From contig JACZSK010000002.1 in NCBI GenBank assembly GCA_022574255.1, positions 11,199 to 75,198 on the forward strand: 64,000 nt of DNA, in the 5' to 3' direction. The stretch comes from Pseudomonadota bacterium (GTDB lineage Bacteria > Pseudomonadota > Alphaproteobacteria > Sphingomonadales > SMXR01). Position numbers and translations under genes: made by a program. Positions 36,019 through 54,222 of the stretch are shown in pieces. Position 1 is the first letter of the stretch, and every line of letters begins with the position of its first letter. The notes beneath the pieces are model-generated. The model was not told the origin of the DNA. It did not search any database and saw only the letters and a list, made by a program, of their open reading frames with translations.

Positions 36019-37869
36019 CTATTCTTTCAGGGTCGGATGCTCCTGTCCGGCACCGAGTTCAGCGTCCAACACCTTTCCGATCAGCAGCACATTTTCCTCA
36101 CCAAACAACGGCCCCCAGACGCTGAAGCCGAATGGAACGCGGTGCAGCGCTGCCCCATCACCCTGCGGTGCCTCGCCAAAGAGAGCGCGGCTCGGGATTT
36201 TGACAAAGCCCGCGCGAAACGACAATTCCGGCTGCCCGGTACAATTTGTCACAAGGCCCATATTGCCGCCGTAGGTGGGCCCGATAAGCGCGTCCACCAG
36301 CGTAAACAGGTCGTGTATAACGCCCATAACCTGCCGCCGGAACCTGTCGATATTGACCAGATCAACAGCGGAGACCAGGCGCGCGGACCGCCAATAGTTG
36401 GGCCAGGAAACATCTTCCTGCCATCTCAATTCATCGTCGCGGCCGGACAGGGTCAATTCCTCGAACGCGGAGGCGGATTCCGCCGCCAGTATCTGGCCCA
36501 GAGAAGCGTAAGGCAGGTCCGGCAAGTCAACTTCAACAAGATCGAGACCTGCGCTTCGCGCCGCCTCCAGCGCCGCCCGATCAACATCGGTCGCCGTATC
36601 TTCAAACCATGCTGGGATATATCCAACACGAAGGTCGCGTGCCGATCGCCCGCCATCATATTCGAACCCGACGTCGAGTGATGACGGGTCGGAGACATCA
36701 AAGCCGTTGATTGCGGCCAGGACGAGCGCCGTATCTTCAACCGATCGGCAGATGGTCCCAATCTTGTCCATTGACCAGGACAGCGGCATGGCACCGGTGC
36801 GTGGAACACGTCCAAAGGTAGGCCTGAGTCCGGTTACACCGCATCGGTTGGCCGGCTCCACGATGGACCCCCATGTTTCTGTACCTATGGAAAACCCAAC
36901 CAAACCGGCAGCGGTCGACGATGCTGAGCCGGCGCTTGATCCGGAGGAACCTTCCTCAATGTTCCAGGGGTTGCGGGTCTGGCCACCGAACCAGATGTCG
37001 CCGTAAGCGAGGGCACCGAGCGTGGTTTTGCCAAGAAGTACCGCTCCCGCATCGCGCAACTTGCTGGTCACTACGCCATCTGTGCTGGCGATCCGATCCT
37101 TGTAGGGAACCGCCCCCCAGGTGGTCCGGATACCGGAGGTATCCATAAGGTCTTTCATGGCGTAGGGAATACCGTGCAGCGGGCCCCGATAGCTTCCGGT
37201 GGCGATTTCAGCATCTGCTTCAGCCGCCTGGGCGCGTGCCAGATCCCCGGTCACGGTGACAAAGCATTCCAGTTTCGGCGCATATCGGGCAATGCGGGCA
37301 AGGTAAAGCTCGGTCAACTCGCGGCTGGATATCTGTCTGGTGCGCACCCAGTGGGCCAGATGCGTCAAAGACGCGAAAGCAATATCCTCTTCAGCGGCAG
37401 GCAGGCTGCTTTTCACGACATCGACTTTAACGGCGTTGGCCTGTGCGCCATAATCCTTGCCCGGCAGACGCGGGTCAAATGCCATCGCGGGCGCTACGGC
37501 CAGAGGTATTCTCAATTTACGTGCGTCGATAACTGCGTCGATCTGGTCATCGATAGAGGTCAGAACCTGTCGGCGCTCAGCGCGCGTATAGGCAAGGCCC
37601 ATGACACGCTCGGCGCCCTGTATATCCGTCGCAGTAATGCCGTGCCCGGTACTTAAGCCAGCGTTTCCACCCGCCTTTTCTGCCGGAGAACTGCCTTCGC
37701 CTTCCGGCTCATTCTCGGGTCCGCATCCCGACAACGCCATGGCTCCCGCTACCGCAATACCCGCCACAGACCCCTGAAGCACCGAGCGTCTGGTCGTTCC
37801 CGGCGACTGGTTGGTCGCAGCAACGTCCTGCCCCGATTCGGCCTGTGTGGCAATTTCCTCGTCTGCCAT
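36019..37869 (-). CDS. Amidase-signature family amidase with Tat signal and lipobox
   Basis: TRRSVLQGSVAGIAVAGAMALSGC is a twin-arginine motif plus an LSGC lipobox. The amidase-signature block is GSSGSSAGSASSTAAGLVGFSIGTETWGSIVEPA. Confidence 0.85.
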   Translation of the reverse strand: MADEEIATQAESGQDVAATNQSPGTTRRSVLQGSVAGIAVAGAMALSGCGPENEPEGEGSSPAEKAGGNAGLSTGHGITATDIQGAERVMGLAYTRAERRQVLTSIDDQIDAVIDARKLRIPLAVAPAMAFDPRLPGKDYGAQANAVKVDVVKSSLPAAEEDIAFASLTHLAHWVRTRQISSRELTELYLARIARYAPKLECFVTVTGDLARAQAAEADAEIATGSYRGPLHGIPYAMKDLMDTSGIRTTWGAVPYKDRIASTDGVVTSKLRDAGAVLLGKTTLGALAYGDIWFGGQTRNPWNIEEGSSGSSAGSASSTAAGLVGFSIGTETWGSIVEPANRCGVTGLRPTFGRVPRTGAMPLSWSMDKIGTICRSVEDTALVLAAINGFDVSDPSSLDVGFEYDGGRSARDLRVGYIPAWFEDTATDVDRAALEAARSAGLDLVEVDLPDLPYASLGQILAAESASAFEELTLSGRDDELRWQEDVSWPNYWRSARLVSAVDLVNIDRFRRQVMGVIHDLFTLVDALIGPTYGGNMGLVTNCTGQPELSFRAGFVKIPSRALFGEAPQGDGAALHRVPFGFSVWGPLFGEENVLLIGKVLDAELGAGQEHPTLKE

Positions 37870-38015
37870 GATTTTCCCCCAAAAATTCGATCCGCATCCC
37901 GGCGACATTGCGCGCCCCTGACCTCCACAGACCGCTTACGATTAGACTGAAAATATCCTATCATATCAGGCTGAAAATCGGCAGGGTTTGGCAGGAACAG
38001 GGACTTCTCCGGCGG

Positions 38016-39644
38016 ATGCAGAAAAAACGGGTATTGGTAGTCGGGGGTGGCTCCGCCGGCTGGATGGCGGCAGCTTATTTGAATGCCGCTCTGAACAGAA
38101 AAGGACAAAAAGCCGTCGATATTTGCCTTGTTGAATCGCCGGATATTCCGCGTATTTCGGTGGGCGAGGCAACGATCCCGAGCATTCGTCACCTGTTGAG
38201 CGTCATGGGCATTGATGAAATCGAATTCATGAAGGCCACGGACGCTTCCTTCAAGCAATCGATAAAATACGTCAACTGGCTGCAAAAAGATGACCACGCC
38301 TATTATCACCCTTTTTCGCGCAACCGGGTTTTCCCCCTCGATCACTCCGGGCCGGACTGGCTGAAAAGCGACAGATCGATCCCCTTCATGGAAACGGCGT
38401 CAGTCCAGCCCGGCATTTGCGAGATGGGGCTGGCCCCCAAGATGCTTGAAAAATGGGACTTTGGACCGCCGCTCTCGTACGCCTATCACATGAATGCTCA
38501 GAAATTTGCCGATTACTTGCGGGACCTTTCAGCCGAGCGCGGCGTCACCCACATTCTGGAGAATGTTGTCGAGGTGGAGATGAAGGAGAATGGGCACATA
38601 GCCGCCGTCAAGACCAGGGACGGCAAACGGTTGGAGGCCGATCTCTTTATCGATTGCACCGGCTTCGCGGCGATCCTGATCGAGAAAAATCTGAAGATCG
38701 GTTTTGAGGATTGTTCGCAGTGGTTGCTGTGCGATCGGGCCGTCACCATGCATGTGCCTTATGAGCATCATTATCCGGGATACGTTCGCCCCTATACCAC
38801 AGCAACCGCACTGAGTGCCGGTTGGGTGTGGGAAATCCCGCTCTCGAGCCTGAAGTCGGTGGGCTATGTCCACTCCAGCCAGTTCATCAGTAAAGACGAA
38901 GCGGAGCGGGAGTTACGCGCCTTTGAGGGGGCGTATACGGATGGCCTGTCTGCGCGGTTCATAGATTTCAGGGTTGGGCGGCGCAAAAAGGCATGGGTGG
39001 CCAATTGCGTGGCAATCGGGCTGTCGGGTGGCTTTATCGAGCCTCTGGAATCAACAGGACTTTACCTGAGCGATCTGGCGGCGGTCATGCTGGCCGAGCA
39101 TTTCCCGTTCGGTGACGACTGGGAGCCGCTGGCCATGCGGTTTAACCGCATCATGTCGAACCGCTTTTACGAAATTCTCGATTTCATCAACATGCATTAC
39201 TGCCTGACGCGCCGAACAGGCACCGAATTCTGGCGGGAAGTCGGACGGCCCGAACGCGTCGTACCGCGCCTGCAGGCGAAGCTGGATTTCTGGAAAATCA
39301 AGCCGCCATCGGGCCAGGATTTTGAGGATCCGTTTTTCCCTGGCCAATCCGGCAAGAACCAGAGGGCAGACAGTCACGGGGGCGATATGCGCGCGGCCAT
39401 AGACACCGCCGGCCTGTGGAACCACGAGAGTTACGAATGCATCCTTTATGGCATGGACTTTATGAGCGATTATTACCGAGAACAATACGGAGAGGACCGC
39501 CCCCCGGCGGTGGTGCCTAAACATGTGTCGGCCCGGCTGCGCGCAGCGCCACACAAGTTGCCGCGACATGATGTCTGGTTGAAAGAAATGGTAGGAATGT
39601 CCGAATATCAGGGGCCGGCCAATCCAGGTTCTGTTTGGGGTTAG
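38016..39644 (+). CDS. Flavin-dependent halogenase homologue (tryptophan-halogenase family), paralogue 1
   Basis: Motifs present: GGGSAGW, SVGEATIPS, ATDASFKQSIKYVNW (conserved Lys), GWVWEIPL (WxWxIP) and GGFIEPLESTG. It carries a 28-aa insertion near the C-terminus relative to paralogues 2 and 3. Confidence 0.85.
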   Translation: MQKKRVLVVGGGSAGWMAAAYLNAALNRKGQKAVDICLVESPDIPRISVGEATIPSIRHLLSVMGIDEIEFMKATDASFKQSIKYVNWLQKDDHAYYHPFSRNRVFPLDHSGPDWLKSDRSIPFMETASVQPGICEMGLAPKMLEKWDFGPPLSYAYHMNAQKFADYLRDLSAERGVTHILENVVEVEMKENGHIAAVKTRDGKRLEADLFIDCTGFAAILIEKNLKIGFEDCSQWLLCDRAVTMHVPYEHHYPGYVRPYTTATALSAGWVWEIPLSSLKSVGYVHSSQFISKDEAERELRAFEGAYTDGLSARFIDFRVGRRKKAWVANCVAIGLSGGFIEPLESTGLYLSDLAAVMLAEHFPFGDDWEPLAMRFNRIMSNRFYEILDFINMHYCLTRRTGTEFWREVGRPERVVPRLQAKLDFWKIKPPSGQDFEDPFFPGQSGKNQRADSHGGDMRAAIDTAGLWNHESYECILYGMDFMSDYYREQYGEDRPPAVVPKHVSARLRAAPHKLPRHDVWLKEMVGMSEYQGPANPGSVWG

Positions 39645-39694
39645 ATGGTACAGGGCTCTTGGTCAGGTTTTTGACTGGTACAGGATTTTAACAA

Positions 39695-41248
39695 ATGGCT
39701 ACAAAGCGGATTGTGATTGTTGGTGGGGGTTCCGCAGGCTGGATCACAGCAGCTTATATGAATGCCGCCATGAATGTCGGTGGCCGCAAGGTCGTGGATA
39801 TCACCCTTATTGAATCGCCCGACGTGCCCCGAATCGCCGTCGGCGAGGCCACCGTGCCAACGATCCGCCAGGTCGTGCAGACGCTTGGTCTTGACGAAAT
39901 AGAATTCATGAAAGCGACCGATGCCACGTTTAAGCAGGGCATCAAATTTATCAACTGGCTGGACAATTACGGTGAGCAATTTTATCACCAGTTCAGCCGC
40001 TACAATCCGGACGCCGTCGACCAGTTTGGTATGGACTGGCTGAAAAGCGACAGGACCATTCCTTTCGCTGATACGGTATCCGCCCAACCCACACTTTGCG
40101 AAATGCATCTGTCGCCGAAGCTGCTCGGCCCCCAGCAGATGCAATTGCCAGTTACCTATGCCTATCACCTGAACGCACTGAAACTGGCCGACTATTTGCG
40201 CGACTTCGCGGTCGCCAGAGGCGTCACCCATCTTATGGACAACGTTACCAAAGTGGAGATGACCGAAGATGGGCGCATAGCCGCAGTCCAGACCCGGAAT
40301 GGCGAGCGCCATGAAGGAGATATCTTTGTCGATTGCACAGGGTTCGCCGCGCTACTGATCGAAAAAGAGCTGGATGTTGGCTGGGATGATTATTCGGACT
40401 GGCTGTTTTGCGACCGGGCCGTGGTGATGCAGGTGCCGTATGAAACCTTTTATCCCGGCTTTGTCCGCTCGGTTACCATGTCGACGGCCCTAAGTTCCGG
40501 ATGGGTCTGGGACATTCCGCTTATAAACCGCCGGGGCGTAGGCTATGTTTATTCCAGCAAATTCATCTCCGATGATGCGGCCGAAGCGGAACTCCGCCAA
40601 TACGAAGGAGCTCACGCGGACGATCTGTCTACGCGCATCGTTCCATTCAAGGTCGGACAGCGAAAAGAGACATGGGTTTCAAACTGCGTTGCGATCGGAC
40701 TGTCAGGGGGTTTTCTGGAGCCGCTGGAATCGACGGGGCTTTATCTGGCCCAGTTCGCTGCTCTTACTTTGGCCGAATATTTTCCGCATGACGGCGACAT
40801 GGAACCGCTGGCCGATCACTACAATACGATCATGTCAGACCGCTTCCACGAAATCCTTAATTTTTTAAATCTGCATTACTGCATGACGCGGCGAAGCGAT
40901 ACCGAGTTCTGGCAGGAGGTAGCCCGTCCGGAACGCATCCTGCCGTCGCTTCAGGAAAAGCTCGAATTCTGGAAAATCAAACCGCCATCGCGTGGTGATT
41001 TCAAGGACCAGTTTACGCTGTTTTCGTATCAAAACCACGAGCTCATCCTGTACGGCTTGGATTTCCTGAAGGATCACTATGCCGAGAAATACAATCACGA
41101 TCTCGCGGCTACCGAAATTCCGGAATTTATTGCCCGGCGCGTCGAAGGCATGCAAAGGCAATTGCCCCCGCATGAATTGTGGCTGCAGCAAAATCTCGGC
41201 ATGCCGGAGTATAATAAGCCAGGAAAATATGGATCGGTTTGGGATTAG
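39695..41248 (+). CDS. Flavin-dependent halogenase homologue, paralogue 2
   Basis: 517 aa with GGGSAGW, AVGEATVPT, ATDATFKQGIKFINW, GWVWDIPL and GGFLEPLESTG. Confidence 0.85.
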   Translation: MATKRIVIVGGGSAGWITAAYMNAAMNVGGRKVVDITLIESPDVPRIAVGEATVPTIRQVVQTLGLDEIEFMKATDATFKQGIKFINWLDNYGEQFYHQFSRYNPDAVDQFGMDWLKSDRTIPFADTVSAQPTLCEMHLSPKLLGPQQMQLPVTYAYHLNALKLADYLRDFAVARGVTHLMDNVTKVEMTEDGRIAAVQTRNGERHEGDIFVDCTGFAALLIEKELDVGWDDYSDWLFCDRAVVMQVPYETFYPGFVRSVTMSTALSSGWVWDIPLINRRGVGYVYSSKFISDDAAEAELRQYEGAHADDLSTRIVPFKVGQRKETWVSNCVAIGLSGGFLEPLESTGLYLAQFAALTLAEYFPHDGDMEPLADHYNTIMSDRFHEILNFLNLHYCMTRRSDTEFWQEVARPERILPSLQEKLEFWKIKPPSRGDFKDQFTLFSYQNHELILYGLDFLKDHYAEKYNHDLAATEIPEFIARRVEGMQRQLPPHELWLQQNLGMPEYNKPGKYGSVWD

Positions 41249-41277
41249 GGTAACTTGCCGCCAACAACTGTTAGCCG

Positions 41278-41312: not shown

Positions 41313-41343
41313 CATACGGGGCTAAGCAGAAGGATAAATTCTT

Positions 41344-42897
41344 ATGACTCCAAAGCGCGTCGTTATAGTAGGTGGAGGCACTGCGGGCTGGGTCACGGCC
41401 TCGAATATGAATGGGGCGTTGAACAGGGACGGTCAAAAGGTTGTCGACATTACCCTGATCGAATCGCCGGATATCCCCCGTATCGCGGTGGGCGAGGCAA
41501 CGTTTCCGACGATTCACCAAATTCTGTTCAACCTTAGTCTCGATGAGACGGAGTTCATGAAGGCGACCGACGCCACCTACAAGCACAGCATCAAGTTCGC
41601 AAACTGGCTGTATAACGAGGGCGAGCATTATCACCACCAGTTCAGCCGCTATAACCCAGAGGCTGTGGATCACTATGGGGCGGACTGGCTAAAGAGTGAC
41701 AGGACAATTCTGTTTGCAGACACGGTTTCTGCTCAACCGGCGATTTGTGATCAACACCTGTCCCCCAAACTCATTGGTACCCGGCAATTTCAAAACCCTT
41801 TGACCTACGCGTTTCACTTGAACGCCCTGAAATTCGCCGATTATCTCAGAGACGTCGCTACGGCCAATGGCGTGACCCATCATCTTGAAAACATGACCGA
41901 AGTCGAAATGACCGATGACGGCAACATCGCCGCGGTAAATACAGACAGGGGCAATCGCTATGAAGCCGACCTGTTTATTGACTGCACCGGTTTCTCCGCG
42001 CTGCTGATCGAAAAAAAGTTGGGTATTGAATGGGATGATTTTTCGCAATGGCTACTCTGCGATCGCGCATTGGTGATGCAGGTGCCATATGAGACCTATT
42101 ATCCCGGTTTTGTCCGGTCTGGAACGATTGCCACCGCCCTGAACGCAGGGTGGATTTGGGATATCCCGCTGATTAACAGGCGCGGTGTCGGCTACGTCTA
42201 TTCCAGCCAGTTTATTTCAGACGATGAAGCGGAGCTCGAGTTACGGCGATATGAGGGAGCACATTCGGACGACCTGCCAACCCGCATCGTACCCTTCAAG
42301 GCGGGTTGTCGAAAGCAAACCTGGGCCAAGAATTGCGTGGCCATCGGTCTGTCAGGCGGTTTCCTCGAACCGCTGGAATCAACGGGTATTTACCTCGTGC
42401 AGCTTGCCGCTATGACGCTGGCGGAATTCTTCCCCCATCATGGTCACATGGAGGAGCTGGCGGACAAGTTCAATGGCCTCATGTCCGACCGTTTTGAAGA
42501 GATCCTCGGTTTCCTCAATATGCATTACTGCCTGACGCGGCGAACAGACACTGAGTTCTGGTTAGAAATAGCAAGGCCCGAGCGCATCCTGCCGGCGCTT
42601 CAGGAGAGGCTGGATCTGTGGAGAATCAAGCCGGTTTCGAAAGGTGATTTCAAGGATCTGTGCTCGGCATTTTCGTATCAGAATCATGAACTGGTCCTCT
42701 TTGGCATGGATTTCGCGCGCGACTATTACGCCGAGATATATGGTGATGACCTGTCAGCAGCGGAAATACCGGAAGTTATAGTGAAGCGCCTCGAGGGCAT
42801 GCAAAGGCAATTACCTCCGCATGAATTGTGGCTGCAACAGACGCTGGGCATGCCGGAGTATAAGAAGCCAAAACAACGTGGGTCGGTATGGGATTAG
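41344..42897 (+). CDS. Flavin-dependent halogenase homologue, paralogue 3
   Basis: 517 aa and collinear with paralogue 2, without gaps by eye. Motifs: GGGTAGW, ATDATYKHSIKFANW, GWIWDIPL, GGFLEPLESTG. Confidence 0.85.
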   Translation: MTPKRVVIVGGGTAGWVTASNMNGALNRDGQKVVDITLIESPDIPRIAVGEATFPTIHQILFNLSLDETEFMKATDATYKHSIKFANWLYNEGEHYHHQFSRYNPEAVDHYGADWLKSDRTILFADTVSAQPAICDQHLSPKLIGTRQFQNPLTYAFHLNALKFADYLRDVATANGVTHHLENMTEVEMTDDGNIAAVNTDRGNRYEADLFIDCTGFSALLIEKKLGIEWDDFSQWLLCDRALVMQVPYETYYPGFVRSGTIATALNAGWIWDIPLINRRGVGYVYSSQFISDDEAELELRRYEGAHSDDLPTRIVPFKAGCRKQTWAKNCVAIGLSGGFLEPLESTGIYLVQLAAMTLAEFFPHHGHMEELADKFNGLMSDRFEEILGFLNMHYCLTRRTDTEFWLEIARPERILPALQERLDLWRIKPVSKGDFKDLCSAFSYQNHELVLFGMDFARDYYAEIYGDDLSAAEIPEVIVKRLEGMQRQLPPHELWLQQTLGMPEYKKPKQRGSVWD

Positions 42898-42926
42898 AGG
42901 TGCCTGCCGTCGGCGAGCGTTAGTCC

Positions 42927-43715
42927 TTATTCATAGCCCAGTAAGTTCCGCAGTCCCGGAACCGTCATATCAACCATCTTCTTTTGAATATCCGGCAGTT
43001 CATCGGGAACCTCGACGACGACCCCGGTCAGGTTTTCACGGGCCGTTCCGCTTTGTTCGCGGTCAGACCCGACGCGCACGCGCTCGCGCCAGTCGTCCGG
43101 GACCGGGTCAATGCCGCAATCGTCGAACAATTGCAAAAAGAATTCTTCGGCTTCATCGCTGTCCAGGTTTGTCACATTTTCCACCAGGTTTTCAAATTTG
43201 ACAAGAACGGCCTTCGCCCCCAGCCATGAGACACAATTGTGCAGGTAAATTTCCTGCAGCATCGGCACCTTCCGATGAATGCCGAAAATCATCATATTCA
43301 ACAGCTCTTCCACGGTAATCCGGTTGTTTTTGATGTGATTGAGAGACCCCTGGAATTCATCGGACATAAAAAAGCGCGCCCGGGCCAGCACCCAGTCATA
43401 GGGATCGCGCGCCAGCAGGATCTGCCGCGTGTCCCTCAGAAACAGCGCGGATTCGTCCGAAAACAGTAAATGTCCCCAACTCAACGTCGGCTTATCCTTG
43501 TTCCAGGCAACCTTGTCAACCTTCATTGAGGGAATCTGGATGAAGCCGCTCTTGTAATGCTGATTGAGCGGCACGAACATCCGCATGATGTTGCGCATGA
43601 GGTGAGAACCGCTTTTTGGAACGCTGTTCAGGAACAGCGGCTGTTTTAACCTGTTATGCTCAAAATTCGCATTCTGCTCGTTCAGGTTATCCTTTTTGAG
43701 TTTGATCCTGGGCAT
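42927..43715 (-). CDS. Cytoplasmic sulfotransferase (PAPS-dependent type)
   Basis: 262 aa. NSVPKSGSHLMRN resembles the 5'-phosphosulfate-binding loop (PKxGTT-like). LLARDPYDWVLARARF resembles the 3'-phosphate-binding RDP.D..(S/A) motif. Confidence 0.65.
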   Translation of the reverse strand: MPRIKLKKDNLNEQNANFEHNRLKQPLFLNSVPKSGSHLMRNIMRMFVPLNQHYKSGFIQIPSMKVDKVAWNKDKPTLSWGHLLFSDESALFLRDTRQILLARDPYDWVLARARFFMSDEFQGSLNHIKNNRITVEELLNMMIFGIHRKVPMLQEIYLHNCVSWLGAKAVLVKFENLVENVTNLDSDEAEEFFLQLFDDCGIDPVPDDWRERVRVGSDREQSGTARENLTGVVVEVPDELPDIQKKMVDMTVPGLRNLLGYE

Positions 43716-43761: not shown

Positions 43762-43795
43762 AAAAAAAGATGCGCCGACCAGAAGGCCGGCGCAT
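43762..43795 (-). terminator. Rho-independent terminator after TonB receptor 2
   Basis: Minus strand reads ATGCGCCGGCCTTCTGGTCGGCGCAT (GC-rich hairpin) followed by CTTTTTTTG, about 30 nt after the stop at 43827. Confidence 0.7.
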
Positions 43796-43826: not shown

Positions 43827-46800
43827 TCAGAATTTCTTTGTAACCTGGAAGAAGATTCGGCGACCTTCCCAATCATACTGGGAAAAGAAAGGCGACGCAC
43901 CCACCACATTGATGTTCGAGCCAACGTTTGATATCGATGGCGGATCCTTGGCGAAAAGGTTGGACACACCGAGCCTCGCCGTGAAACCGTTAGGCAATTC
44001 ACGGGCGAGCGAAACGTTGTGATAAAAGACAGCCGGGATTTCGATATCAATGTCATAATCAACCTCGGCGGGAAGGTCCGTAAAGAAAGTAACTGTGCTG
44101 CCGCCATTATCCTCGACATTAGAGGTACTGCCTACACCCCGGATTCCCCAGGTTCCCGACCACGGTCCCTTCGTTCCTGTGAAGATCAGGTTGCCGACCC
44201 ATTTCGGATCACCCGCCAGACCGTTCTTGTCTTCCGGAAAGCCGGTGAACAATTCGATCGAATCCTTGGTGGTGATCGTATGCTGGGTATCAATTCTCAA
44301 ATGGATCCCCCAGGGCAACTCGGTTTGGAATGTTGCGGCAATATCCACGCCCCGGTGTTTCTGGACCGCGATATTGACGAACTGGTCCCGCACCTGGGTA
44401 ACCGCACCGGGCAGTGGTTGATCCTGAGGCGTGCGAGTAAAGAGGTCGCACAACGGATCGGTCGGGAAGTTGGGCGAATCATAACAGCCGAAGACGATAT
44501 TTGCCCCCCCAAGCACCGTAACCTCATCCCTTATCTCGATCCGGAAATAATCGACCGAGATCTGAAGGTCAGCAAAACTCGGCGACCAGACAAAGCCTAT
44601 ATTCGATGAGGTCGAGGTTTCGGCTTCCAATGTGCCCAAACCACCGCCGGTGAGGACAGTACCGGTTATCGATGCGGTATGATCAAACGGAATTCCATCT
44701 GCAGCGCAGTTGTCCGCCTGCCTCTGAGTTATATTGCCATCACCCAGCCCTTGACCCCAGAGGAAGCAGGGATCAAGAAGTGATTGCCGCACTTGTGTGG
44801 CCTCGTCCTCCAGGAACAGCTCAAACAGCGCCGGTGTCCTGAAGGATGTGCCCCTTGTCGCCCTGATGCGAATCTCGGGCGTAACAGACCAATTCAGGCC
44901 AACCTTATAGGTCAACCCGTCGCCGGACAGGTTGACGTCGGTGTAGCGAACCGAAGCGCTCACCGAAAACCTTTCAATCAGTGGTTTGCCGACCAGCAAA
45001 GGGATATCAACCTCTGCAAATACCGCCCTGGTATTCTGTTCGCCCGCGGTGATGCGGGCGGCCCCCGAGCCCCACACGTTGCCGGCCTGGGCGGCGTCGC
45101 CCGGCGTATCGTTGAGGCTGTCGTGACGATAATGGACGCCAAACGCGGCACCTACCGGTCCGGCGGGCATATCAAACAGGTCGCCCGTCACCGCCGCGTC
45201 GAAAGAATATTGTTCGTAAACGGTTGTACCGGTTTCGTCAGCCAACAGGAAGTCACGCTCCGCCTGGGTGAGGTTACCCCGCATGTTCTCAGGGTTCAGC
45301 CAGTCGACATTCACGCATTGTATGTTGGCGATCACATTGCCGTCGACGTCAAGCCGGTCAAAATCCGCACAGCCGGCGCCCCCGAGACCAGTTCCTCCGC
45401 CCCATCCTACTGGGTTATTGGACCACACCGAATCATTCCAGATAAACTGGCCCCAGTATTCGGCATCCGACTTCGAAAATTGCCCGGAAACATCGAAATC
45501 CCAGCCCGATTCGCCGATGTTTCCCTTCAGGCCTGCTACGCCGCGGAAGTAATCGATTGTGTTGCTGTTATCGAAATGGTCGATAACCGGCGTCGGGCTG
45601 AACCATTGCGCGCCGGTCCAGCCGTCGGACAGCGGCCCGCCGGAATCCGGTGTCAGGTAATAATCATAGAAGTTGAAATTATCATTATAAATATATGACC
45701 AGTACTGCGCATAATGGTTCTCGTAATTTTCACGGCGATTGAAAAGTGCCTCGGCATACAGGGTCATATCGTTTGTGAGCTCGTACTCGCCCTCCGCCAT
45801 GATCGTGAATCGTTCGGTATAGGGGATCAGGGATTCTTCATCCTGGAAGGGATGATCAGAATCCTGGAGCGCCAGCGAGGCACGATCATAACCCACAGGG
45901 AACCAGCCCGGAGGCGTGTTCATATGGGTGGGATTGGCCGGGTCCGCCAAGTCGTTGACTGACGGCAGGCCCGCAGCAGCAAGAGCCCCGTCAAAATCAA
46001 ATTGAACAAGAGTTACCGGCTCCGGCAAGTTCGTTGTTCCGTCACCCTCGGGGTGGGTTCCTGCATAATCATAGGTCCAGACATGGCCCCACGACCAGTC
46101 TGAGCAGCGGAACTCGCCCGTCCTGGGATCAACCAAGTCAGCGCGTTCGCCGGTTTGCTGGTCAAAGATCTTGTTTTCGCCACAAGCGAAATAATCACGG
46201 TCGCCCTTGGCCAGTTCTTCCCTGCGGTAATAGTCGGCGGTAACGCGGAAATTGCCGCGGTCAAAAACCTTCCCGTACGACCCGCTGATGCGAAACTCCT
46301 CGCCACCACCTTTAAGGGGCACTGATCCGTAGGCGTCAAGCGTGCCGCCATCTTGTTTCTTGGTGATGATGTTGATAACGCCGGCAACGGCGTCCGACCC
46401 GTAAATCGACGAGGCGCCGTCTTTGAGAATCTCGATCCGCTCGATGACCGACAACGGCAATACGTTGAAGTCAAACGCCGAAACACTGCCGCGAATGCCG
46501 GCGGGACCCGCCCGGCGCCCGTTCAGCAGCACCAGCGTGCGGTTTGAGCCAAGGCCACGCAACGAAATCGTCTCCACCCCTGCACCGCCGGGCGTAGAGC
46601 CGCTGTTGTTGCCAAACGCCGTCGAGATGGCTGAAGTCAACTGGGGTGAGCCGGCCGCGATCGTCGTCGACCGCAGCAGCGAGGCAACATCAGAGAAACC
46701 AAGTGGCGCAGCCTCATCGGCAAAGATCACATCCATCGGCGCGGCGCTCTCAAAACCGCTTCTTTTGATCCGCGACCCGGTGACGACAACTTCTTCAATC

Positions 46801-46952
46801 ATGTCATCGTCTGCAGCCGCAGCGTCCTGGTCCTGCGCCATTGTCGGCACGGAAAGAACAAGGCTGCCGATCAGCGCGGTGCCACCGAGCAAGGCGGTCC
46901 GCCAATTACGTCGATCATCCTCGCCATCAAAGTCGTCATTAATCCTGGCCAT
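43827..46952 (-). CDS. TonB-dependent outer-membrane receptor, large (TBDR 2)
   Basis: 1041 aa with a signal peptide, a plug region (EEVVVTGSRIKRSGFESAAPMDVI) and a C-terminal ...RRIFFQVTKKF barrel terminus. Confidence 0.9.
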   Translation of the reverse strand: MARINDDFDGEDDRRNWRTALLGGTALIGSLVLSVPTMAQDQDAAAADDDMIEEVVVTGSRIKRSGFESAAPMDVIFADEAAPLGFSDVASLLRSTTIAAGSPQLTSAISTAFGNNSGSTPGGAGVETISLRGLGSNRTLVLLNGRRAGPAGIRGSVSAFDFNVLPLSVIERIEILKDGASSIYGSDAVAGVINIITKKQDGGTLDAYGSVPLKGGGEEFRISGSYGKVFDRGNFRVTADYYRREELAKGDRDYFACGENKIFDQQTGERADLVDPRTGEFRCSDWSWGHVWTYDYAGTHPEGDGTTNLPEPVTLVQFDFDGALAAAGLPSVNDLADPANPTHMNTPPGWFPVGYDRASLALQDSDHPFQDEESLIPYTERFTIMAEGEYELTNDMTLYAEALFNRRENYENHYAQYWSYIYNDNFNFYDYYLTPDSGGPLSDGWTGAQWFSPTPVIDHFDNSNTIDYFRGVAGLKGNIGESGWDFDVSGQFSKSDAEYWGQFIWNDSVWSNNPVGWGGGTGLGGAGCADFDRLDVDGNVIANIQCVNVDWLNPENMRGNLTQAERDFLLADETGTTVYEQYSFDAAVTGDLFDMPAGPVGAAFGVHYRHDSLNDTPGDAAQAGNVWGSGAARITAGEQNTRAVFAEVDIPLLVGKPLIERFSVSASVRYTDVNLSGDGLTYKVGLNWSVTPEIRIRATRGTSFRTPALFELFLEDEATQVRQSLLDPCFLWGQGLGDGNITQRQADNCAADGIPFDHTASITGTVLTGGGLGTLEAETSTSSNIGFVWSPSFADLQISVDYFRIEIRDEVTVLGGANIVFGCYDSPNFPTDPLCDLFTRTPQDQPLPGAVTQVRDQFVNIAVQKHRGVDIAATFQTELPWGIHLRIDTQHTITTKDSIELFTGFPEDKNGLAGDPKWVGNLIFTGTKGPWSGTWGIRGVGSTSNVEDNGGSTVTFFTDLPAEVDYDIDIEIPAVFYHNVSLARELPNGFTARLGVSNLFAKDPPSISNVGSNINVVGASPFFSQYDWEGRRIFFQVTKKF

Positions 46953-47190
46953 TATTTACAGCCTCCCTGGACTCACATCCTACTGCCCCAGCAAAATTGC
47001 AGAGTGTGAGCGACTTCAACACTGTTGGAGACGAGTAAAAAAAAGCCCCGAACACCAACCCTAACACCTTGGGCGCCAATTTATTGCGGCGCCTCATATT
47101 GTTATTTTTTCTGATCGCGGTGCTTCCCGTGTAACTTTATGATACCCCGCAGGCAAACACCGCAACTTAATTACACTGGCAGCCAGAACG

Positions 47191-47262
47191 GTCGTTTGTC
47201 AATGCAAAATAATAGTCGTTTGTCAATGCAAAATAATGGTCGTTTATCAATGCAAAATAATG
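47191..47262. repeat. Three head-to-tail 24-bp direct repeats (GTCGTTTGTCAATGCAAAATAATR)
   Basis: Units at 47191-47214, 47215-47238 and 47239-47262 differ at 1-2 positions only. They lie in the 556-bp gap between the halogenase 4 stop and the TBDR 2 start. Confidence 0.9.
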
Positions 47263-47508
47263 TGGGCACAAGATTTAGCCCTGGAAGATCAGACGGGCCG
47301 TCAAGGTGTATTTCAGCGACTAGCGAAGGAATACGAGATGACGACGCAATGACGTTCGTGGTTACCTAGTTCCCTCTCCCTGATCTGACACTTCTGCCAC
47401 ACGTTCTTGAGGGGCACTTAAGTCGGCGGGACCTGGTGCCGAACCGGCAGGCGGGCCAACCACGTCGTCGAGGATTTCGCGCATCTCCCGCCAGGAACGA
47501 GTCCTGGT

Positions 47509-49089
47509 TTATGAGCCCCGCGCCGGAGCCTTTCGAAAGCCTGTGCTGTAAGCGGTATCGACGAGCGCCCGATGATCGGGCAGGGCGGCCAGCCCGCCAC
47601 GCGCGAGGCTATCCAGCTCCAGCGAGCGTTGTCGCGCTTCCGGCCATCTGCGAAAGCGATGTTCCTGGTCGGCGAGATCGGGAAGGTAATCCATTCCGTA
47701 AAGAACCTGCAGGTGTCCGGCCAGGCCGAAAATGTTTGCATTGGCGGAGAATTCGAGCAGGCCGGGGACGCGGTAGCGCCAGCTTTCCAGTTTGTCCCTC
47801 AGCGTATCGGTCAGTGTTTCATCGCGCTGGTTGTCTATCCAGAAATCGGTGTCTGTGCGGCGGCTCAGCGCATAATGCAGTTTGATGAAGTCGATAATGT
47901 CAACGTAGGAATCATTCATCGCATCGTTAAATTGCTTGGCCGCCAGCGACATCTTCTCGGTCGGCGGAAAATAATCGACCAAATATCTGAGGGACACATC
48001 CAGGATATGGATCCCGGTCGATTCCAGGGGCTCAAGAAAGCCCGCTGACAGCCCTATTGAAACACAGTTTTTGAACCACTGCTGGCGCCTTAGGCCGGTG
48101 CGCATCTTTAGGCGCCGCATTTTGACGTTCGACGCTTGTTCACCGAGATAGCCGGCGAGCACTTCTTCTGCGCGCGCGTCGTCGGTATATCTGCTCGAAT
48201 AGACATATCCTGCACCGCGGCGGTCGCTGAGCGGGATATCCCATATCCAACCGTTTTCCTGCGCGGTGGCGATCGTGAATGGTGGAATCGCCTGCCCCGG
48301 ATCGGTGAACGGAATTTGGCAGGCTATTGCCCGGTCGCAAAAAATCTTATCCGAAAGGCTGTCAAAACCCACGCCCATCGCTTTTTCGATTATGTATGCT
48401 CCGAAACCTGTGCAATCGAGGTACAGGTCGGCGGTAAGTTCTCCATGTTCCTCGGTGTCCAAGGCGGCGATGGAGCCGTCCTCCGCCAGCCGGACATTCT
48501 TGACCGTGCCGACCAGGTGTTCGACTCCGCTTGCACATCCGACCTTTTTCAGCAGCCCGACAAGCAGCCCGGCGTCAAAGTGGTAGGCATACTGCATTGG
48601 TCCGCCGAATTGGAAGCCGTCGGTTTTTTTCGGGCCGCGGCCGGCGTCACAGATTCGTCCTTCGATCATCGAAAAATCAACGAAGCTCTTTCCTATGGAA
48701 TCGCGGGCGATGACCCAATAAGGCGCCATTAACTCCTGCAACTGCTGGCCGAATCGGCCCGCCTCGCCAAAGACATGATAATAACTGTCTGGTCGACCGC
48801 CAGCCTCCCTTCCCAGCCACTGGTCAAACCTGATTCCCAACTTGAAAGTGGCGGAGGTCGCCCGCATGAATTCGGCCTCATCCAGGCCCAGACTGGCGAT
48901 CACGGTCCTGACCGGGGGCACGGTCGCCTCGCCAACACCGACGGTTTCGATTTCACTGGATTCAATCAGCGTGATCCGCGGGCCATCCGGTTGGTCTGAG
49001 CCCAGATTCCGCGCCAGATAGGCAGCGGCAAGCCAACCCGAAGTGCCGCCGCCGACGATGACAATATGCTCGATCCTTGTCAAAAACAT
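47509..49089 (-). CDS. Flavin-dependent halogenase homologue, paralogue 4 (most divergent)
   Basis: Motifs: GGGTSGW, GVGEATVPP, ATSATFKLGIRFDQW, GWIWDIPL, AGFLEPLESTG. Start set at MFLTRIEHIVIVGGG. Confidence 0.8.
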   Translation of the reverse strand: MFLTRIEHIVIVGGGTSGWLAAAYLARNLGSDQPDGPRITLIESSEIETVGVGEATVPPVRTVIASLGLDEAEFMRATSATFKLGIRFDQWLGREAGGRPDSYYHVFGEAGRFGQQLQELMAPYWVIARDSIGKSFVDFSMIEGRICDAGRGPKKTDGFQFGGPMQYAYHFDAGLLVGLLKKVGCASGVEHLVGTVKNVRLAEDGSIAALDTEEHGELTADLYLDCTGFGAYIIEKAMGVGFDSLSDKIFCDRAIACQIPFTDPGQAIPPFTIATAQENGWIWDIPLSDRRGAGYVYSSRYTDDARAEEVLAGYLGEQASNVKMRRLKMRTGLRRQQWFKNCVSIGLSAGFLEPLESTGIHILDVSLRYLVDYFPPTEKMSLAAKQFNDAMNDSYVDIIDFIKLHYALSRRTDTDFWIDNQRDETLTDTLRDKLESWRYRVPGLLEFSANANIFGLAGHLQVLYGMDYLPDLADQEHRFRRWPEARQRSLELDSLARGGLAALPDHRALVDTAYSTGFRKAPARGS

Positions 49090-49422
49090 CCTCCAACAAA
49101 AGCGACCGCCCGTCGCAATTTGCATCCATTACTAGATACCGGCACATGCTTGGGAGCGCAAAGAGATTCCTTGCTTACCGATCACGCGCTCCTGTTTTGG
49201 GCGGTATTAATGGTCCTGATTCAAAGACTTAAGCTTTGGCGCGCCGGACAGGATAAAAATGAGAACTTTTCGGTGGCGGTTGTGCAGAGGGCCGCCAAAG
49301 CGTCAGATAGCAGTCAGAATATGATGGCAAAGTGGTTCGTCGATCAAGCCCGGAATGGGTCTGCCTCCAGCTAAAAGCCGACCCTTCCGGTTCCAAAGAT
49401 TTTGACGGGCCTCGCGGTGCAG

Positions 49423-51456
49423 TCAACCCCCTTTGACGTAGGTGGCGTACCAGTCCAGATAGCGCTCATAGCGGTCCCTGATGAAGCTGGGCCGCCTAAA
49501 GCCGTGGAACTCGCCTGGATAGACGACCAGCTGCGTTGCGATGCCCCGTCGACGCAGCACCTGATAAAGCTGTTCAGAATTCATGATTGGAACGTTCCAG
49601 TCCTCTTTTCCACCCAATATCAACGTCGGCGTCTCGACTTTATCGAGAGCATTAAAGGGGGAGAGCTTTTCCCACAATTCACGATTCTCCCAAGGCAAGC
49701 CAAGCTCCGCCTCCCAAATCTGCTGATAGATATCGTGGCCATAATTGGCAACATAAAGCACTTCGCTGGCACCCGTGATGGCGCCCTTGAAGCGGTTGGT
49801 TTTAGTGATCACGTAGTTGGTCAGCATGCCGCCGTATGACCATCCCCCGACCCCGAGCCGCTCGGCATCGGCGTAGCCCGCGCCGATGGCATAATCGACC
49901 GCGGCCATAACGTCCTGGTAATCGAGATTGCCCCAGTCCTGAAATATGCCGAGGGAGAAGTCCTGACCATAACCGCTGGAGCCCCGGGGATTGGCCATGA
50001 CCACCACATAACCGTTCGCCGCGAACAACTGGGCGTCCGCGTGGAAGGAAATATCATATTGGCCAACGGGCCCACCGTGGATGCGCAGAAGTGTTGGATA
50101 GGTTTTTTTCGGATTGTATCCGGGCGGCGTATAAATAAAGCCCTCGATTTCGGTCCCGTCGGCGCTGGGGAAGGTCACGCTCCTGACTTTGGCCAGAGTC
50201 AGGGCGCTCAGCAATTCAGTATTCGTCTGGGTCAATTGGTTGAGGCTATCGCCCTCCAGAATGAAAATCTCCTCGGGGTGATTCGGCGCTCGAGTCAGGG
50301 CCGCGATCGCACCGCCGGAATGCAGGTTGAAGGAACGAACACTCACTTCACCGCTGATCGGCCGCGCTATTTCACCCGTAGCCAGGTCAAGCCGCGCCAG
50401 GTGATTTTCGCCGCTGTCTTCCAGCCGGAACCATATGGCGTCGCCCTCAACATCGAAGACCGGCGCTCTTACATTGCGATCAAGATCGACTGTCAAAACC
50501 CTGGCCTCGCCCCCGGAGGCCGGGATCATCGCCAGATGATTCGTCGCATACCATAAAATCTCCGGTTGGGTGACCGTGACATAGGCCAGAGTCTTGCCGT
50601 TACGGCTCCAGGCCGGTGAGTAATCCGACCCGGGGTTTGTGGTGACCCTGCGGGCGGTCCTTGTTTTCTCGCTACCCTCCGCCGAAACCACCCAGATATC
50701 CGTGTTATTATTTCTATCCGGTTCTTCTGTACGGTTCGAGACGAAGGCAATTTCGCTGCCGTCGGGGCTCCAGACCGGCTCCGAATCGTCGTAATCGTCA
50801 AATGTGATCTGTAAAGGCTCTGCGTCCCGGCCCTCAACCAGATAGAGATGGGTGCGCGAGCGATCGAGATAACCGACATAATCTTTCTTGAAGTGAAGTC
50901 GGTCGATGACCCAGGGCAGCGGGATTTCCTCCTTGCGTTTTTCTTTCTGCTCGGCCAGCAATCTTTCGGCTTCACTTTGATCCTTGATAACCAGCAACAT
51001 CTTCTGGCCGTCGGGAGACCAGTGAAACTCGCTCACGCCCTGTGGGACATTGGTATATTGCTGCGCCTCGCCGCCGCGGCGATCGAGCGTCCATACCTGC
51101 GTCTTTTCTTCTTCGGTTTTAGCCGCCAGGAAACCAAGAATTTTTCCGTCGGGGCTCCAGCGCGGGCTCGATGCGGAATAATCGTTCGCGGTCAACTGAA
51201 CGACCTCATCGCCATCGCGGGAGACCATAAAGATTTGCGTCGATTCGGCATCTTTCTTCAGATCGTTCCGCGTGACCGTATAGGCGACCCAGTGCCCGTC
51301 CGGACTGATCTGCGGGTCGGCGACCCGTTTCAGCGCAAGGATATCGTCGATGGTCAGACTGCGTTGAGCGTCCGCTTCCTGCGAACAACCCAAAATTCCA
51401 AGATTCAATACCAGCAGCACAGTGAGAATACGAGATACAGATAAATCAACAGACAT
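49423..51456 (-). CDS. S9-family serine peptidase (prolyl oligopeptidase / acylaminoacyl-peptidase-like) with N-terminal beta-propeller; lipoprotein signal
   Basis: LNLGILGC lipobox. Repeated ...SPDG..(I/V)A(F/Y)... propeller blades. GGWSYGG nucleophile elbow and a C-terminal alpha/beta-hydrolase domain. Confidence 0.85.
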   Translation of the reverse strand: MSVDLSVSRILTVLLVLNLGILGCSQEADAQRSLTIDDILALKRVADPQISPDGHWVAYTVTRNDLKKDAESTQIFMVSRDGDEVVQLTANDYSASSPRWSPDGKILGFLAAKTEEEKTQVWTLDRRGGEAQQYTNVPQGVSEFHWSPDGQKMLLVIKDQSEAERLLAEQKEKRKEEIPLPWVIDRLHFKKDYVGYLDRSRTHLYLVEGRDAEPLQITFDDYDDSEPVWSPDGSEIAFVSNRTEEPDRNNNTDIWVVSAEGSEKTRTARRVTTNPGSDYSPAWSRNGKTLAYVTVTQPEILWYATNHLAMIPASGGEARVLTVDLDRNVRAPVFDVEGDAIWFRLEDSGENHLARLDLATGEIARPISGEVSVRSFNLHSGGAIAALTRAPNHPEEIFILEGDSLNQLTQTNTELLSALTLAKVRSVTFPSADGTEIEGFIYTPPGYNPKKTYPTLLRIHGGPVGQYDISFHADAQLFAANGYVVVMANPRGSSGYGQDFSLGIFQDWGNLDYQDVMAAVDYAIGAGYADAERLGVGGWSYGGMLTNYVITKTNRFKGAITGASEVLYVANYGHDIYQQIWEAELGLPWENRELWEKLSPFNALDKVETPTLILGGKEDWNVPIMNSEQLYQVLRRRGIATQLVVYPGEFHGFRRPSFIRDRYERYLDWYATYVKGG

Positions 51457-54211: not shown

Positions 54212-54222
54212 TGGTCTTGTGT

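Follow-up and report, generated by a model that had tools for sequence, protein, structure and literature searches.

Results and Discussion

A mobile receptor module enlarged in the present copy

The gene block described here, between 36.0 and 51.5 kb of the window (the whole 64,000-nucleotide stretch of DNA analysed), is a real feature, an expanded version of a module that is widespread and laterally mobile. The core of the module consists of the gene for a TonB-dependent receptor (TBDR) of ~1000–1050 residues and, next on that strand, the gene for STL, a cytoplasmic protein of 262 residues with a predicted sulfotransferase fold; a halogenase of the HalA-type clade is the commonest add-on to this pair. 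The present copy has gained the halogenases HalB, HalC and HalD as well as two periplasm-facing lipoprotein hydrolases. Modules of this kind were noted by comparative genomics in 2010, have had no experimental follow-up since and are still uncharacterised.

A sequence-only reading had placed in the block four intact halogenase genes, the receptor TBDR2, STL, a Tat-lipoprotein amidase and a lipoprotein S9 peptidase. All were found where it had put them, and profile searches returned Trp_halogenase (PF04820), Amidase (PF01425) and Peptidase_S9-type (PF00326) matches. Domain profiles also matched the IS6 transposase and second receptor, TBDR1, that it had described upstream. Every ORF of ≥100 aa between 36.0 and 51.5 kb was assigned, and none encodes an NRPS/PKS, carrier protein, reductase, transporter or regulator, in agreement with that reading. 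Its view of the whole block as one system is not supported in that form, since the conserved unit is a TBDR and a sulfotransferase, which one specific halogenase clade may or may not join; TBDR1 lies outside this unit.

A pattern scan of species-representative genomes confirmed at least 533 stretches encoding STL relatives, and STL homologues form ~2950 clusters (90% identity) at 56–80% identity in two proteobacterial classes. We compared 82 related loci, 50 of which have full flanks and 66 of which were parsed for gene order and neighbours. An orthologue of TBDR2 (41–57% identical) adjoins STL in 74 of the 82 loci. Among the 50 loci with full flanks, 49 have it within 6 kb of STL, and in 36 it immediately precedes STL on the same strand (median gap, 96 bp); the order TBDR then STL is seen in 48 of the 66 parsed loci. 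A HalA-type halogenase is located within 8 kb in 32 of the 50 full-flank loci, and about a third of them have no halogenase. In eight loci the halogenase gene starts 3–30 bp after STL, a spacing indicative of co-transcription. Other additions are Asp/Asn beta-hydroxylases (17 loci) and more Sulfotransfer_3 enzymes (15 loci), often fused to TPR repeats; many loci, such as those of Kordiimonas pumila and Hyphococcus, consist of the receptor and STL alone. The adjacency of halogenase, TBDR and sulfotransferase, on which the sequence-only reading had staked its proposal, is strongly conserved in Alpha- and Gammaproteobacteria.

Could the arrangement have arisen by island- or IS-mediated shuffling of genes that do not cooperate? 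The surroundings are mosaic, with an IS6 element at 34750–35445, a truncated aldehyde dehydrogenase gene (Aldedh) at 51609–52355 and an integrase gene (54223–55440) beside a tRNA-Ser gene, and some adjacencies may therefore be accidental; the associations of the amidase and of HalD are indeed not conserved. However, the TBDR2-STL-HalA linkage is kept across two proteobacterial classes with operon-like spacing, which refutes this explanation for the core genes, and one relative of HalD with 80% identity again adjoins two other halogenases, a TBDR and a 262-aa gene. As an account of the arrangement, accidental assembly is highly improbable.

The receptor and its sulfotransferase-fold partner

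TBDR2 (43827..46952, minus strand), the first gene of the core pair, encodes a 1041-aa outer-membrane receptor with Plug (PF07715) and barrel (PF00593) domains, a signal peptide, a TonB-box-like EEVVVTGSRI and a C-terminal Phe. Its PDB matches are restricted to the plug domain, and no NCBIfam subfamily cutoff was reached. A 24-bp tandem repeat in three copies (47190..47262; TRF score 132) sits 240–310 bp upstream, each unit containing TTGACA; three matches were observed against 0.02 expected by chance, and two copies are present at this locus in another metagenome assembly. Between TBDR2 and STL, the top site of a consensus scan is a terminator-like hairpin with a T-run (43770..43795, minus strand), whose 11-bp stem has 8 GC pairs and precedes CTTTTTTT; by this consensus match it is possibly an attenuator.

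STL (42927..43715, minus strand) is the second gene of the pair and encodes 262 aa without a signal peptide. Its earlier assignment as a sulfotransferase is the one soft point of the gene identifications. Pfam gave only sub-threshold Sulfotransfer_1/2 matches (E 0.1–0.17; 12–13 bits against a cutoff of 22), NCBIfam gave none, and the STL family has no Pfam model. The predicted fold and conserved motifs, in contrast, favor the assignment. All PDB matches of the AlphaFold model (pLDDT 88.8) are PAPS sulfotransferases (SULT7A1, SULT1C2, StaL and Teg12; E 1e-5, TM ~0.55), and PK(S/C)G(S/T)H, SWGH and RDPxxWxLAR are invariant in the homologues (n = 31). Residues K33 (the P-loop Lys), H81 and R102 are likewise invariant with SULT-like spacing, and we take SULT1A1 K48, H108 and R130 to be their counterparts. 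Distant members of the family score above the PF00685 cutoff. Modeling thus predicts a PAPS-sulfotransferase fold for STL.

Four halogenases of differing origin

The four halogenases match PF04820 over the whole profile with E values of 7e-130 to 5e-135 (cutoff 21 bits): HalA (542 aa; 38016..39644, plus strand; 2e-131), HalB (517 aa; 39695..41248, plus strand; 5e-135), HalC (517 aa; 41344..42897, plus strand) and HalD (526 aa; 47509..49089, minus strand; 2e-132). The hallmarks previously picked out by eye were all recovered in each ORF by regex check, namely GGG(S/T)(A/S)GW, the Lys of A(S/T)(F/Y)K..I(K/R)(F/Y)..W, GW(V/I)W(E/D)IP and GF(I/L)EPLEST. With all catalytic motifs present, the enzymes appear catalytically competent by motif content.

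HalA is 59–69% identical to the STL-adjacent halogenases of 41 loci and is nested within the STL-linked clade in an NJ tree; it belongs to the STL-linked orthogroup and is the module's usual halogenase. HalB is sister to that clade and shares 72.5% identity with HalC and 56% with HalA. Profile, hallmarks, identity and tree identify HalC as a tandem duplicate of HalB, and the two are lineage-specific, HalA-like duplicates gained by this copy. HalD is a distant paralogue, 34–40% identical to the other three, that can be aligned from end to end with PDB 9lu2, 9ltb and 2pyx. Its inclusion in a common system is not borne out, as relatives at 54–58% identity stand alone amid housekeeping genes in other Alphaproteobacteria; HalD was recruited from an otherwise free-standing clade.

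Accessory hydrolases

The S9 (prolyl-oligopeptidase family) serine peptidase (49423..51456, minus strand) is an exported lipoprotein with lipobox LGILGC. It matches PF00326 at 9e-52, carries PD40 propeller domains and aligns to PDB 8wt1 at 2e-90; its best NCBIfam match is Dpp5 (284 bits, under its cutoff). The propeller of this family admits oligopeptides only. The amidase-signature enzyme (36019..37869, minus strand; PF01425 at 2e-72) is a Tat-exported lipoprotein with motif RRSVLQG and lipobox LSGC, and its top PDB matches include Pam, a periplasmic peptide amidase (1m21, 5ac3). Neither hydrolase can be retained as a regular part of the system. S9 genes accompany the core in 9 of the 82 loci, three of these ordered Hal-S9-TBDR-STL, and recur in four lineages, some lying 13–89 bp from, or overlapping, a halogenase gene; the S9 peptidase is an occasional module accessory. 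An amidase relative is found in a single locus of the 82 (L037), and this enzyme is almost unique to the window.

Import and tailoring, or decoration of an endogenous molecule?

A fundamental question is how an outer-membrane receptor would cooperate with cytoplasmic tailoring enzymes. Our best guess, held tentatively, is uptake by the TBDR followed by periplasmic trimming and cytoplasmic halogenation and sulfation. TBDR2 would pump an exogenous oligopeptide-like or aromatic organic compound, rather than an iron chelate, across the outer membrane, and the S9 peptidase and amidase would trim it in the periplasm. An unlinked transporter would take the product into the cytoplasm. There, an electron-rich aromatic ring and a hydroxyl group would be targets for the halogenases, using FADH2, O2 and Br-/Cl-, and for the PAPS-dependent sulfotransferase; this could serve to inactivate or trap the compound, or to turn it into a signal or a defence compound. 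We infer this direction, and peptide uptake in particular is pointed to by the receptor as first gene, by the S9 peptidases recurring in four lineages, and by the export and lipoprotein signals of both hydrolases together with the resemblance of the amidase to a periplasmic peptide amidase. The argument for a peptide nevertheless rests mostly on these two enzymes, which occur in 9 and 1 of the 82 loci, respectively. Across the family, no inner-membrane transporter gene is linked (a multi-TM neighbour occurs in only 7 of 66 loci, none recurrent), and delivery to the cytoplasmic enzymes is therefore an assumption of the import model. Also against this model, it is hard to see what a cell would gain from using PAPS and FADH2 on an imported nutrient, and the characterised relatives of the tailoring enzymes (StaL/Teg12, PrnA/RebH) are all biosynthetic.

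The main rival, which we consider rather unlikely, is biosynthesis with re-uptake (Iyer et al. 2010, PMC2938197), a published prediction whereby an endogenous amino-acid-derived molecule is decorated by the halogenases, the sulfotransferase and, elsewhere, beta-hydroxylases, secreted, and recaptured by the receptor, possibly as a metal complex or signal. The conserved enzymes are all cytoplasmic tailoring enzymes with biosynthetic relatives, the beta-hydroxylases and Sulfotransfer_3 enzymes of related loci resemble a decoration toolkit, and the missing transporter suits an endogenous substrate equally well. However, the block lacks a scaffold enzyme and carrier protein, and no NRPS/PKS, scaffold-forming enzyme, carrier protein or exporter recurs in the family, nor any conserved small ORF or precursor-like peptide in the 82 related loci; the locus is therefore no classical biosynthetic cluster, as had been proposed. 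Fur boxes showed no excess over shuffled controls in 64 TBDR2 upstream regions, which speaks against a siderophore system and against this rival. The many loci reduced to receptor and STL, and exported oligopeptidases within the operon, are also hard to fit into such a route.

An alternative hypothesis, to which we give little credence, is that protein side chains are modified before export by STL and the halogenases, joined in other loci by hydroxylases and sulfotransferases fused to TPR repeats; the target could be the co-encoded receptor or another envelope protein. A strict one-to-one operon of receptor and enzyme, receptor first, would need no importer, exporter, precursor or regulator; TPR repeats mediate protein interaction; and other unexplained pairs of a receptor gene and a cytoplasmic oxygenase gene exist (fiu-ybiX, piuA-piuC). 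Yet we know of no halogenated or sulfated bacterial outer-membrane protein, a search for a receptor motif that follows enzyme presence found none, and no halogenase is present in a third of the full-flank loci. Iyer et al. (PMC2938197) make the case that the enzyme families concerned modify peptides, whereas the related BrvH and Xcc4156 brominate small indoles in vitro (PMC7336383).

Comparison with known systems

The association of halogenases with TBDRs is in general not new. Iyer, Abhiman, de Souza and Aravind (NAR, 2010; PMC2938197) described TonB-receptor/Trp-halogenase/SapC/JmjC-2OGFeDO neighbourhoods in Alpha- and Gammaproteobacteria, mentioned variants with classical 2OG dioxygenases and sulfotransferases, and predicted a siderophore role. 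As here, one to several Trp-halogenase homologues with the Lys intact adjoin a TonB receptor, NRPS is not obligatory, and sporadic distribution suggests lateral transfer. In contrast, SapC and JmjC are not recurrent partners in our 82 loci (neighbour genes Pfam-scanned in part), since only the families named above recur; the receptor's constant partner is instead STL, whose separate family of 262-aa sulfotransferase-fold proteins Pfam does not model; and the window has four halogenases and two exported hydrolases. The receptors carry no Fur-box signal, which argues against the siderophore prediction.

The halogenases share Pfam family and catalytic motifs with the BrvH/Xcc4156/2PYX/9LU2/9LTB type, 'tryptophan halogenases' that do not take free tryptophan. 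Native substrates of such enzymes, BrvH and Xcc4156 among them, are reported to be unknown (PMC7336383, PMC7754283). The structures 9lu2, 9ltb and 2pyx are the best PDB matches of HalB and HalD, and 9lu2 that of HalA, all at only moderate identity; alignment of HalA with Trp halogenases ends at about residue 410–445 of 542. STL shares its predicted fold with SULT/StaL/Teg12 PAPS sulfotransferases (PF00685), and a P-loop-like PKxG(T/S), a His after a beta-strand and a pre-helix RxP follow in the same order at similar spacing, but its Pfam score is under the cutoff, and profile-profile alignment to the neighbouring Sulfotransfer_3 enzymes covers the P-loop only (12% probability).

In alphaproteobacterial loci of the lasso-peptide isopeptidase AtxE2 (S9 family), an S9 enzyme adjoins a TonB receptor as here, and such loci are interpreted as importing and cleaving a peptide natural product. 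The window's S9 peptidase has only a secondary NCBIfam match to that family (174 bits, far under the 400-bit cutoff; Dpp5 is better), and lasso-peptide genes and a sigma/anti-sigma pair are absent. The pyrrolnitrin (prnABCD) and rebeccamycin (reb) clusters share Trp_halogenase-family enzymes with the window. Unlike them, the present cluster has no pathway partner, scaffold enzyme, carrier protein or dedicated flavin reductase, and is organised around a receptor.

Conservation of the receptor, sulfotransferase and halogenase genes

A pattern built on the alignment of STL (the 262-aa sulfotransferase-fold protein of the window) was scanned against one genome per species and gave at least 533 confirmed stretches; the best 80 of these were joined with loci reached by exact-protein look-ups to give a comparison set of 82 non-redundant loci. 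Within this set of best matches and look-ups, an orthologue of TBDR2, the window's 1041-aa TonB-dependent receptor, lies no more than 6 kb away in 74 of the 82 loci and shares 41–57% identity with it. When the comparison is confined to the 50 loci flanked on each side by 5 kb or more, the receptor is found in 49 and a halogenase within 8 kb in 32, such that the adjacency of halogenase, receptor and sulfotransferase described in the sequence-only reading is kept in related genomes. The receptor stands directly upstream of STL on the same strand in 36 of these 50 loci, separated from it by a median of 96 bp. Two arrangements dominate, one in which receptor, STL and halogenase(s) follow one another, with an STL-to-halogenase gap of 3–30 bp in eight loci, and one in which a receptor–halogenase unit is divergent from STL. 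Three Porticoccaceae/Cellvibrionales loci have the order halogenase, S9 peptidase, receptor, STL, with gaps of 13–89 bp or overlapping ORFs, compared with S9 peptidase, HalD, receptor, STL on the minus strand of the window. The conserved unit is a receptor–sulfotransferase core plus a dedicated halogenase clade, with operon-like spacing and sometimes in the form of one tight operon.

Which genes accompany this unit? Clustering of neighbor families, based on a greedy non-overlapping gene set from the 82 loci, revealed Asp/Asn β-hydroxylase homologues (Asp_Arg_Hydrox, PF05118), some of them TPR-fused, in 17 loci, TPR–Sulfotransfer_3 proteins in 10, S9 peptidases in 9 and a 323-aa Sulfotransfer_3 protein in 5, while a relative of the window's amidase is present in just one other locus. 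A direct profile tie between STL and the neighboring Sulfotransfer_3 enzymes was rejected, as hhalign gave 12% probability and aligned the P-loop alone. Aldehyde dehydrogenases (Aldedh) occur in 8 loci at only 26–42% identity to the window fragment, and were rejected as a conserved partner because the superfamily is heterogeneous. No NRPS/PKS, SapC, JmjC, regulator or transporter family is recurrent in the 82 loci, and linked membrane proteins are rare, with at least five predicted spans found within four genes of STL in 7 of 66 parsed loci. Among ORFs outside the called genes of the 82 loci and the window, no 18–95-aa family of the kind expected for a RiPP precursor is common to more than four loci.

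Two irregularities were noted in the comparison set. The TBDR2 orthologue is broken into three to five consecutive ORFs in L020, L025, L027 and L069, which are either frameshift errors of long-read assemblies or pseudogenes. A receptor–sulfotransferase pair with 51% and 60% identity is also present at 6863–10786 of L041, a Vicinamibacterales metagenome bin assigned to Acidobacteriota, and points either to transfer between phyla or to misbinning.

Gene content and surroundings of the window block

In the window, the S9 peptidase, HalD, TBDR2 and STL genes follow one another on the minus strand, HalA, HalB and HalC on the plus strand converge on STL, and the amidase gene is divergent from HalA. 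An ORF scan and profile searches uphold the gene list of the sequence-only reading, in which STL is the sole uncertain identification, and reveal no further ORF of 100 aa or more in the 36.0–51.5 kb interval. They agree with the earlier description of a block lacking NRPS/PKS, and extend it in that the block holds no ligase or other scaffold-forming enzyme and no precursor peptide gene. The positions of an IS6 element (34750–35445) and of the second TonB receptor, TBDR1 (31969–34428), to the left of the block were likewise recovered by profile searches. The earlier assignment of two exported hydrolases also stands: the amidase (minus strand, 36019–37908, likely start 37869; PF01425, 245 bits) carries a twin-arginine motif, RRSVLQG, followed by a lipobox, LSGC, and the S9 peptidase (minus strand, 49423–51456; PF00326, 176 bits) carries the lipobox LGILGC. 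Both enzymes pass the Pfam cutoffs and bear predicted export signals.

Of the terminator-like hairpins in the region, that between TBDR2 and STL is the strongest. A 24-bp tandem repeat, ATTATTTTGCATTGACAAACGACC on the minus strand, contains TTGACA and is present in three copies at 47190–47262, 240–310 bp upstream of TBDR2. The window's contig derives from a metagenome-assembled genome, and the same locus in a second metagenome assembly (L002) has two copies, from which it follows that the repeat number is polymorphic; the repeat may serve as an array of operators or promoters. An Rfam E-value scan of 30–56 kb for riboswitches and known RNAs returned tRNA-Ser only. No PLSDB match indicative of a plasmid origin was obtained by megablast of the block or tblastn of STL.

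The right flank consists of a truncated aldehyde dehydrogenase gene and an integrase gene adjoining tRNA-Ser(GGA), followed by lepA and pheST. The stretch at 51609–55705, with the aldehyde dehydrogenase fragment (profile positions 161–341 only), an unannotated 257-aa ORF and the tyrosine integrase by the tRNA, resembles the boundary of an integrated element. As for the limits of such an island, the tRNA-Ser 3' end and the integrase-proximal sequence are not repeated elsewhere in the window, and no att repeat was found inside it. On the left, beside TBDR1, 25420–31873 holds plus-strand genes for a UbiD decarboxylase, an Amidohydro_2 protein and an SBF-family transporter, and minus-strand genes for a TetR regulator, a UbiX-type flavoprotein and an aldehyde dehydrogenase; the set resembles an operon for the uptake and decarboxylation of aromatic acids and has no relation to the conserved module. 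Minus-strand genes at 21349–25517 encode a nitroreductase, a 468-aa protein with a 4Fe-4S dicluster motif, and DUF3179 and DUF2390 proteins.

The four halogenases

HalA (38016–39644), HalB (39695–41248) and HalC (41344–42897) on the plus strand and HalD (47509–49089) on the minus strand all give whole-model matches to Pfam Trp_halogenase (PF04820) of 434–451 bits against a cutoff of 21, with E-values of about 1e-130 to 1e-135. Regular-expression searches located in all four the GGGxxGW form of the GxGxxG dinucleotide loop, the catalytic Lys equivalent to K79 of PrnA, the GWxWxIP block and GF(I/L)EPLEST with its Glu, in agreement with the earlier claim that every hallmark is retained. By these motifs the four proteins are members of the flavin-dependent halogenase family with intact catalytic motifs and predicted activity.

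The four are nonetheless not equivalent. Identity is 72.5% between HalB and HalC, 55–56% between HalA and either of these, and 34–40% between HalD and the other three. In a neighbor-joining tree of the window halogenases and 52 halogenases of related loci, HalA, which represents the usual halogenase of the module, falls within the STL-linked clade, HalB and HalC come out as a sister pair, and HalD branches outside as an outgroup. The PDB matches of HalB and HalD are led by 9lu2, 9ltb and 2pyx, and that of HalA by 9lu2, with BrvH (6frl) and Xcc4156 (6y1w) also among the matches of the window halogenases. Alignments of HalA to the free-tryptophan halogenases PrnA, PyrH and Thal, a type with a conserved tryptophan-binding module at the C-terminus, end at about residues 409–445 of 542, and full-length PDB alignments of HalD are limited to 9lu2, 9ltb and 2pyx. 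In Kordiimonas aquimaris, Stakelama marina and one metagenome contig, HalD relatives of 54–58% identity stand alone amid housekeeping genes, whereas an 80%-identity relative is grouped with a 995-aa receptor, a 262-aa gene and two more halogenases. Based on this difference in setting, HalD was recruited to the module within the lineage of the window.

The solitary HalD-type genes (L089 8001–9563, L090 8001–9608 and L091 8001–9560) have no receptor or tailoring partner; that of Kordiimonas (L089) adjoins hisG/hisD and an EPSP synthase gene and that of Stakelama (L091) a purL-type gene, a core-genome setting for a lone halogenase.

STL as a putative sulfotransferase

STL scores below the Pfam cutoff of 22 bits for both Sulfotransfer_1 (11.7 bits) and Sulfotransfer_2 (13.1 bits), and neither NCBIfam nor a PDB sequence search yielded anything useful for its identification. 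Its family is large and very uniform, comprising about 2950 clusters at 90% identity (373 at 50%) from Alpha- and Gammaproteobacteria with 56–80% identity. An alignment of 31 members shows the invariant motifs PK(S/C)G(S/T)H, SWGH, RDPxxWxLAR and SGTAREN, in which residues P32, K33, G35 and H37 of the 5'-phosphosulfate loop, PKxG(T/S)x, and R102, D103 and P104 of the 3'-phosphate RxP motif are invariant. An AlphaFold model built on this alignment (pLDDT 88.8) gave 69 Foldseek matches in the PDB at E ≤ 0.001; all 50 of the matches listed are sulfotransferase-family structures, retinol dehydratase included, with probability 1.00 and TM of about 0.5–0.57, and cytosolic SULTs and the glycopeptide sulfotransferases StaL and Teg12 are among the fold matches. 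Distant relatives, defined as proteins matching the STL profile at E-values of 1e-17 to 1e-44, pass the Sulfotransfer_1 (PF00685) cutoff themselves (P0229, 33 bits; P0262, 35; P0266, 32; P0231, 29.5; P0161, 26). Taken together, the family motifs, the fold matches of the model and the relatives that pass the cutoff argue that STL is a divergent PAPS-type sulfotransferase with putative activity. The earlier naming of a 262-aa sulfotransferase is upheld by fold, motifs and intermediate sequences, although not by the protein's own Pfam score. No signal peptide was detected in STL.

Fusions were observed among the distant relatives (P0229, P0233, P0250, P0262 and P0266), the partners including TPR repeats, an FkbM methyltransferase or a second, Stf0-type sulfotransferase. 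P0250 is fused to a radical-SAM/B12-binding domain, and the sulfotransferase match itself is absent from it.

TBDR2 and the direction of substrate flow

TBDR2 (minus strand, 43827–46952) is a TonB-dependent receptor by its plug (PF07715), barrel domain (PF00593), signal peptide and C-terminal aromatic residue, a terminal Phe. Is it a siderophore receptor? All NCBIfam siderophore-receptor models score far under their cutoffs on TBDR2, with the best-matching stretches confined to the plug region. The regions upstream of 64 TBDR2 orthologues show no excess of Fur boxes, the best match reaching at most 13 of 19 positions and equaling shuffled controls; this search for iron regulation was confined to the Fur box. 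A search of these regions for k-mers returned low-complexity words only. The sub-cutoff subfamily scores and the absent Fur-box excess argue against a siderophore-type TonB receptor system.

A classical secondary-metabolite gene cluster or RiPP cluster was also rejected, as a scaffold-forming enzyme or precursor gene is neither present in the window block nor recurrent in the 82 loci. We tentatively favor a path in which the receptor would take up an exogenous peptide-like or aromatic compound, which would be trimmed in the periplasm and then halogenated and sulfated in the cytoplasm. The rationale is that the first gene is invariably the receptor, that exported oligopeptidases recur within the operon in several lineages, that scaffold enzyme and exporter are absent, and that the 64 receptor upstream regions lack a Fur-box signal. 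The main weakness of uptake is the missing inner-membrane step, together with the cost in PAPS and FADH2. The receptor–sulfotransferase core, its halogenase clade, the operon-like spacing, the intact motifs and the export signals of the two hydrolases are observed, and the flow of substrate is inferred from them. The published alternative, that a decorated amino-acid derivative is made by the cell and recaptured by the receptor (PMC2938197), appears unlikely to us. Modules without importer, exporter, scaffold enzyme or precursor gene would also be accounted for if the sulfotransferase, the halogenases and, elsewhere, the TPR-fused hydroxylases had no small-molecule substrate and modified, while still in the cytoplasm, side chains of the co-encoded receptor or of some other envelope protein that is later exported. 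We regard such protein modification as very improbable; if true, it would be the first case of sulfation or halogenation of an outer-membrane protein in bacteria.

Comparison with known systems

Genes annotated as tryptophan halogenases lie beside TonB receptors in hundreds of marine and soil proteobacterial genomes, and the question of their native substrates has stood since at least 2010. The present analysis narrows this problem to a compact, strongly conserved unit of receptor, 262-aa sulfotransferase and HalA-type halogenase and parts core genes from passengers, and what it chiefly offers is a more sharply drawn, testable definition of the module. Cultured strains carrying the unit can be named, so that genetic and metabolomic tests are now practical: Alteromonas sediminis U0105 (L057), Kangiella shandongensis PI (L082), Marinicella sediminis F2 (L075) and Arsukibacterium indicum SM2107 (L088) have the receptor and STL together with one or two halogenases, and Kordiimonas pumila (L006) and Hyphococcus sp. 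DH-69 (L023) have the receptor–STL pair alone. Whichever way substrate flows, the outcome would be either a new class of TonB-dependent uptake or a new route by which organohalogens and organosulfates form in seawater and sediments.

In the literature found on the function of receptor-linked halogenases, Iyer et al. 2010 is accompanied only by structural or in-vitro work, with no experimental follow-up, and for BrvH and the Xanthomonas halogenases the native substrates are described as unknown (PMC7336383). Iyer et al. described TonB-receptor/Trp-halogenase/SapC/JmjC neighborhoods, mentioned variants with 2OG dioxygenases and sulfotransferases, and predicted a halogenated, siderophore-like product (PMC2938197). 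As in those neighborhoods, where they number one to three, Trp-halogenase genes adjoin a TonB receptor here and are kept across genomes. However, SapC and the JmjC/cupin dioxygenase are absent from the window, and Asp_Arg_Hydrox (PF05118) is the only recurrent dioxygenase in the related loci. The window locus is a real and moderately interesting variant of an already described, uncharacterized kind, built around the STL family, which has no Pfam model, instead of SapC/JmjC, and with four halogenases and two exported hydrolases attached.
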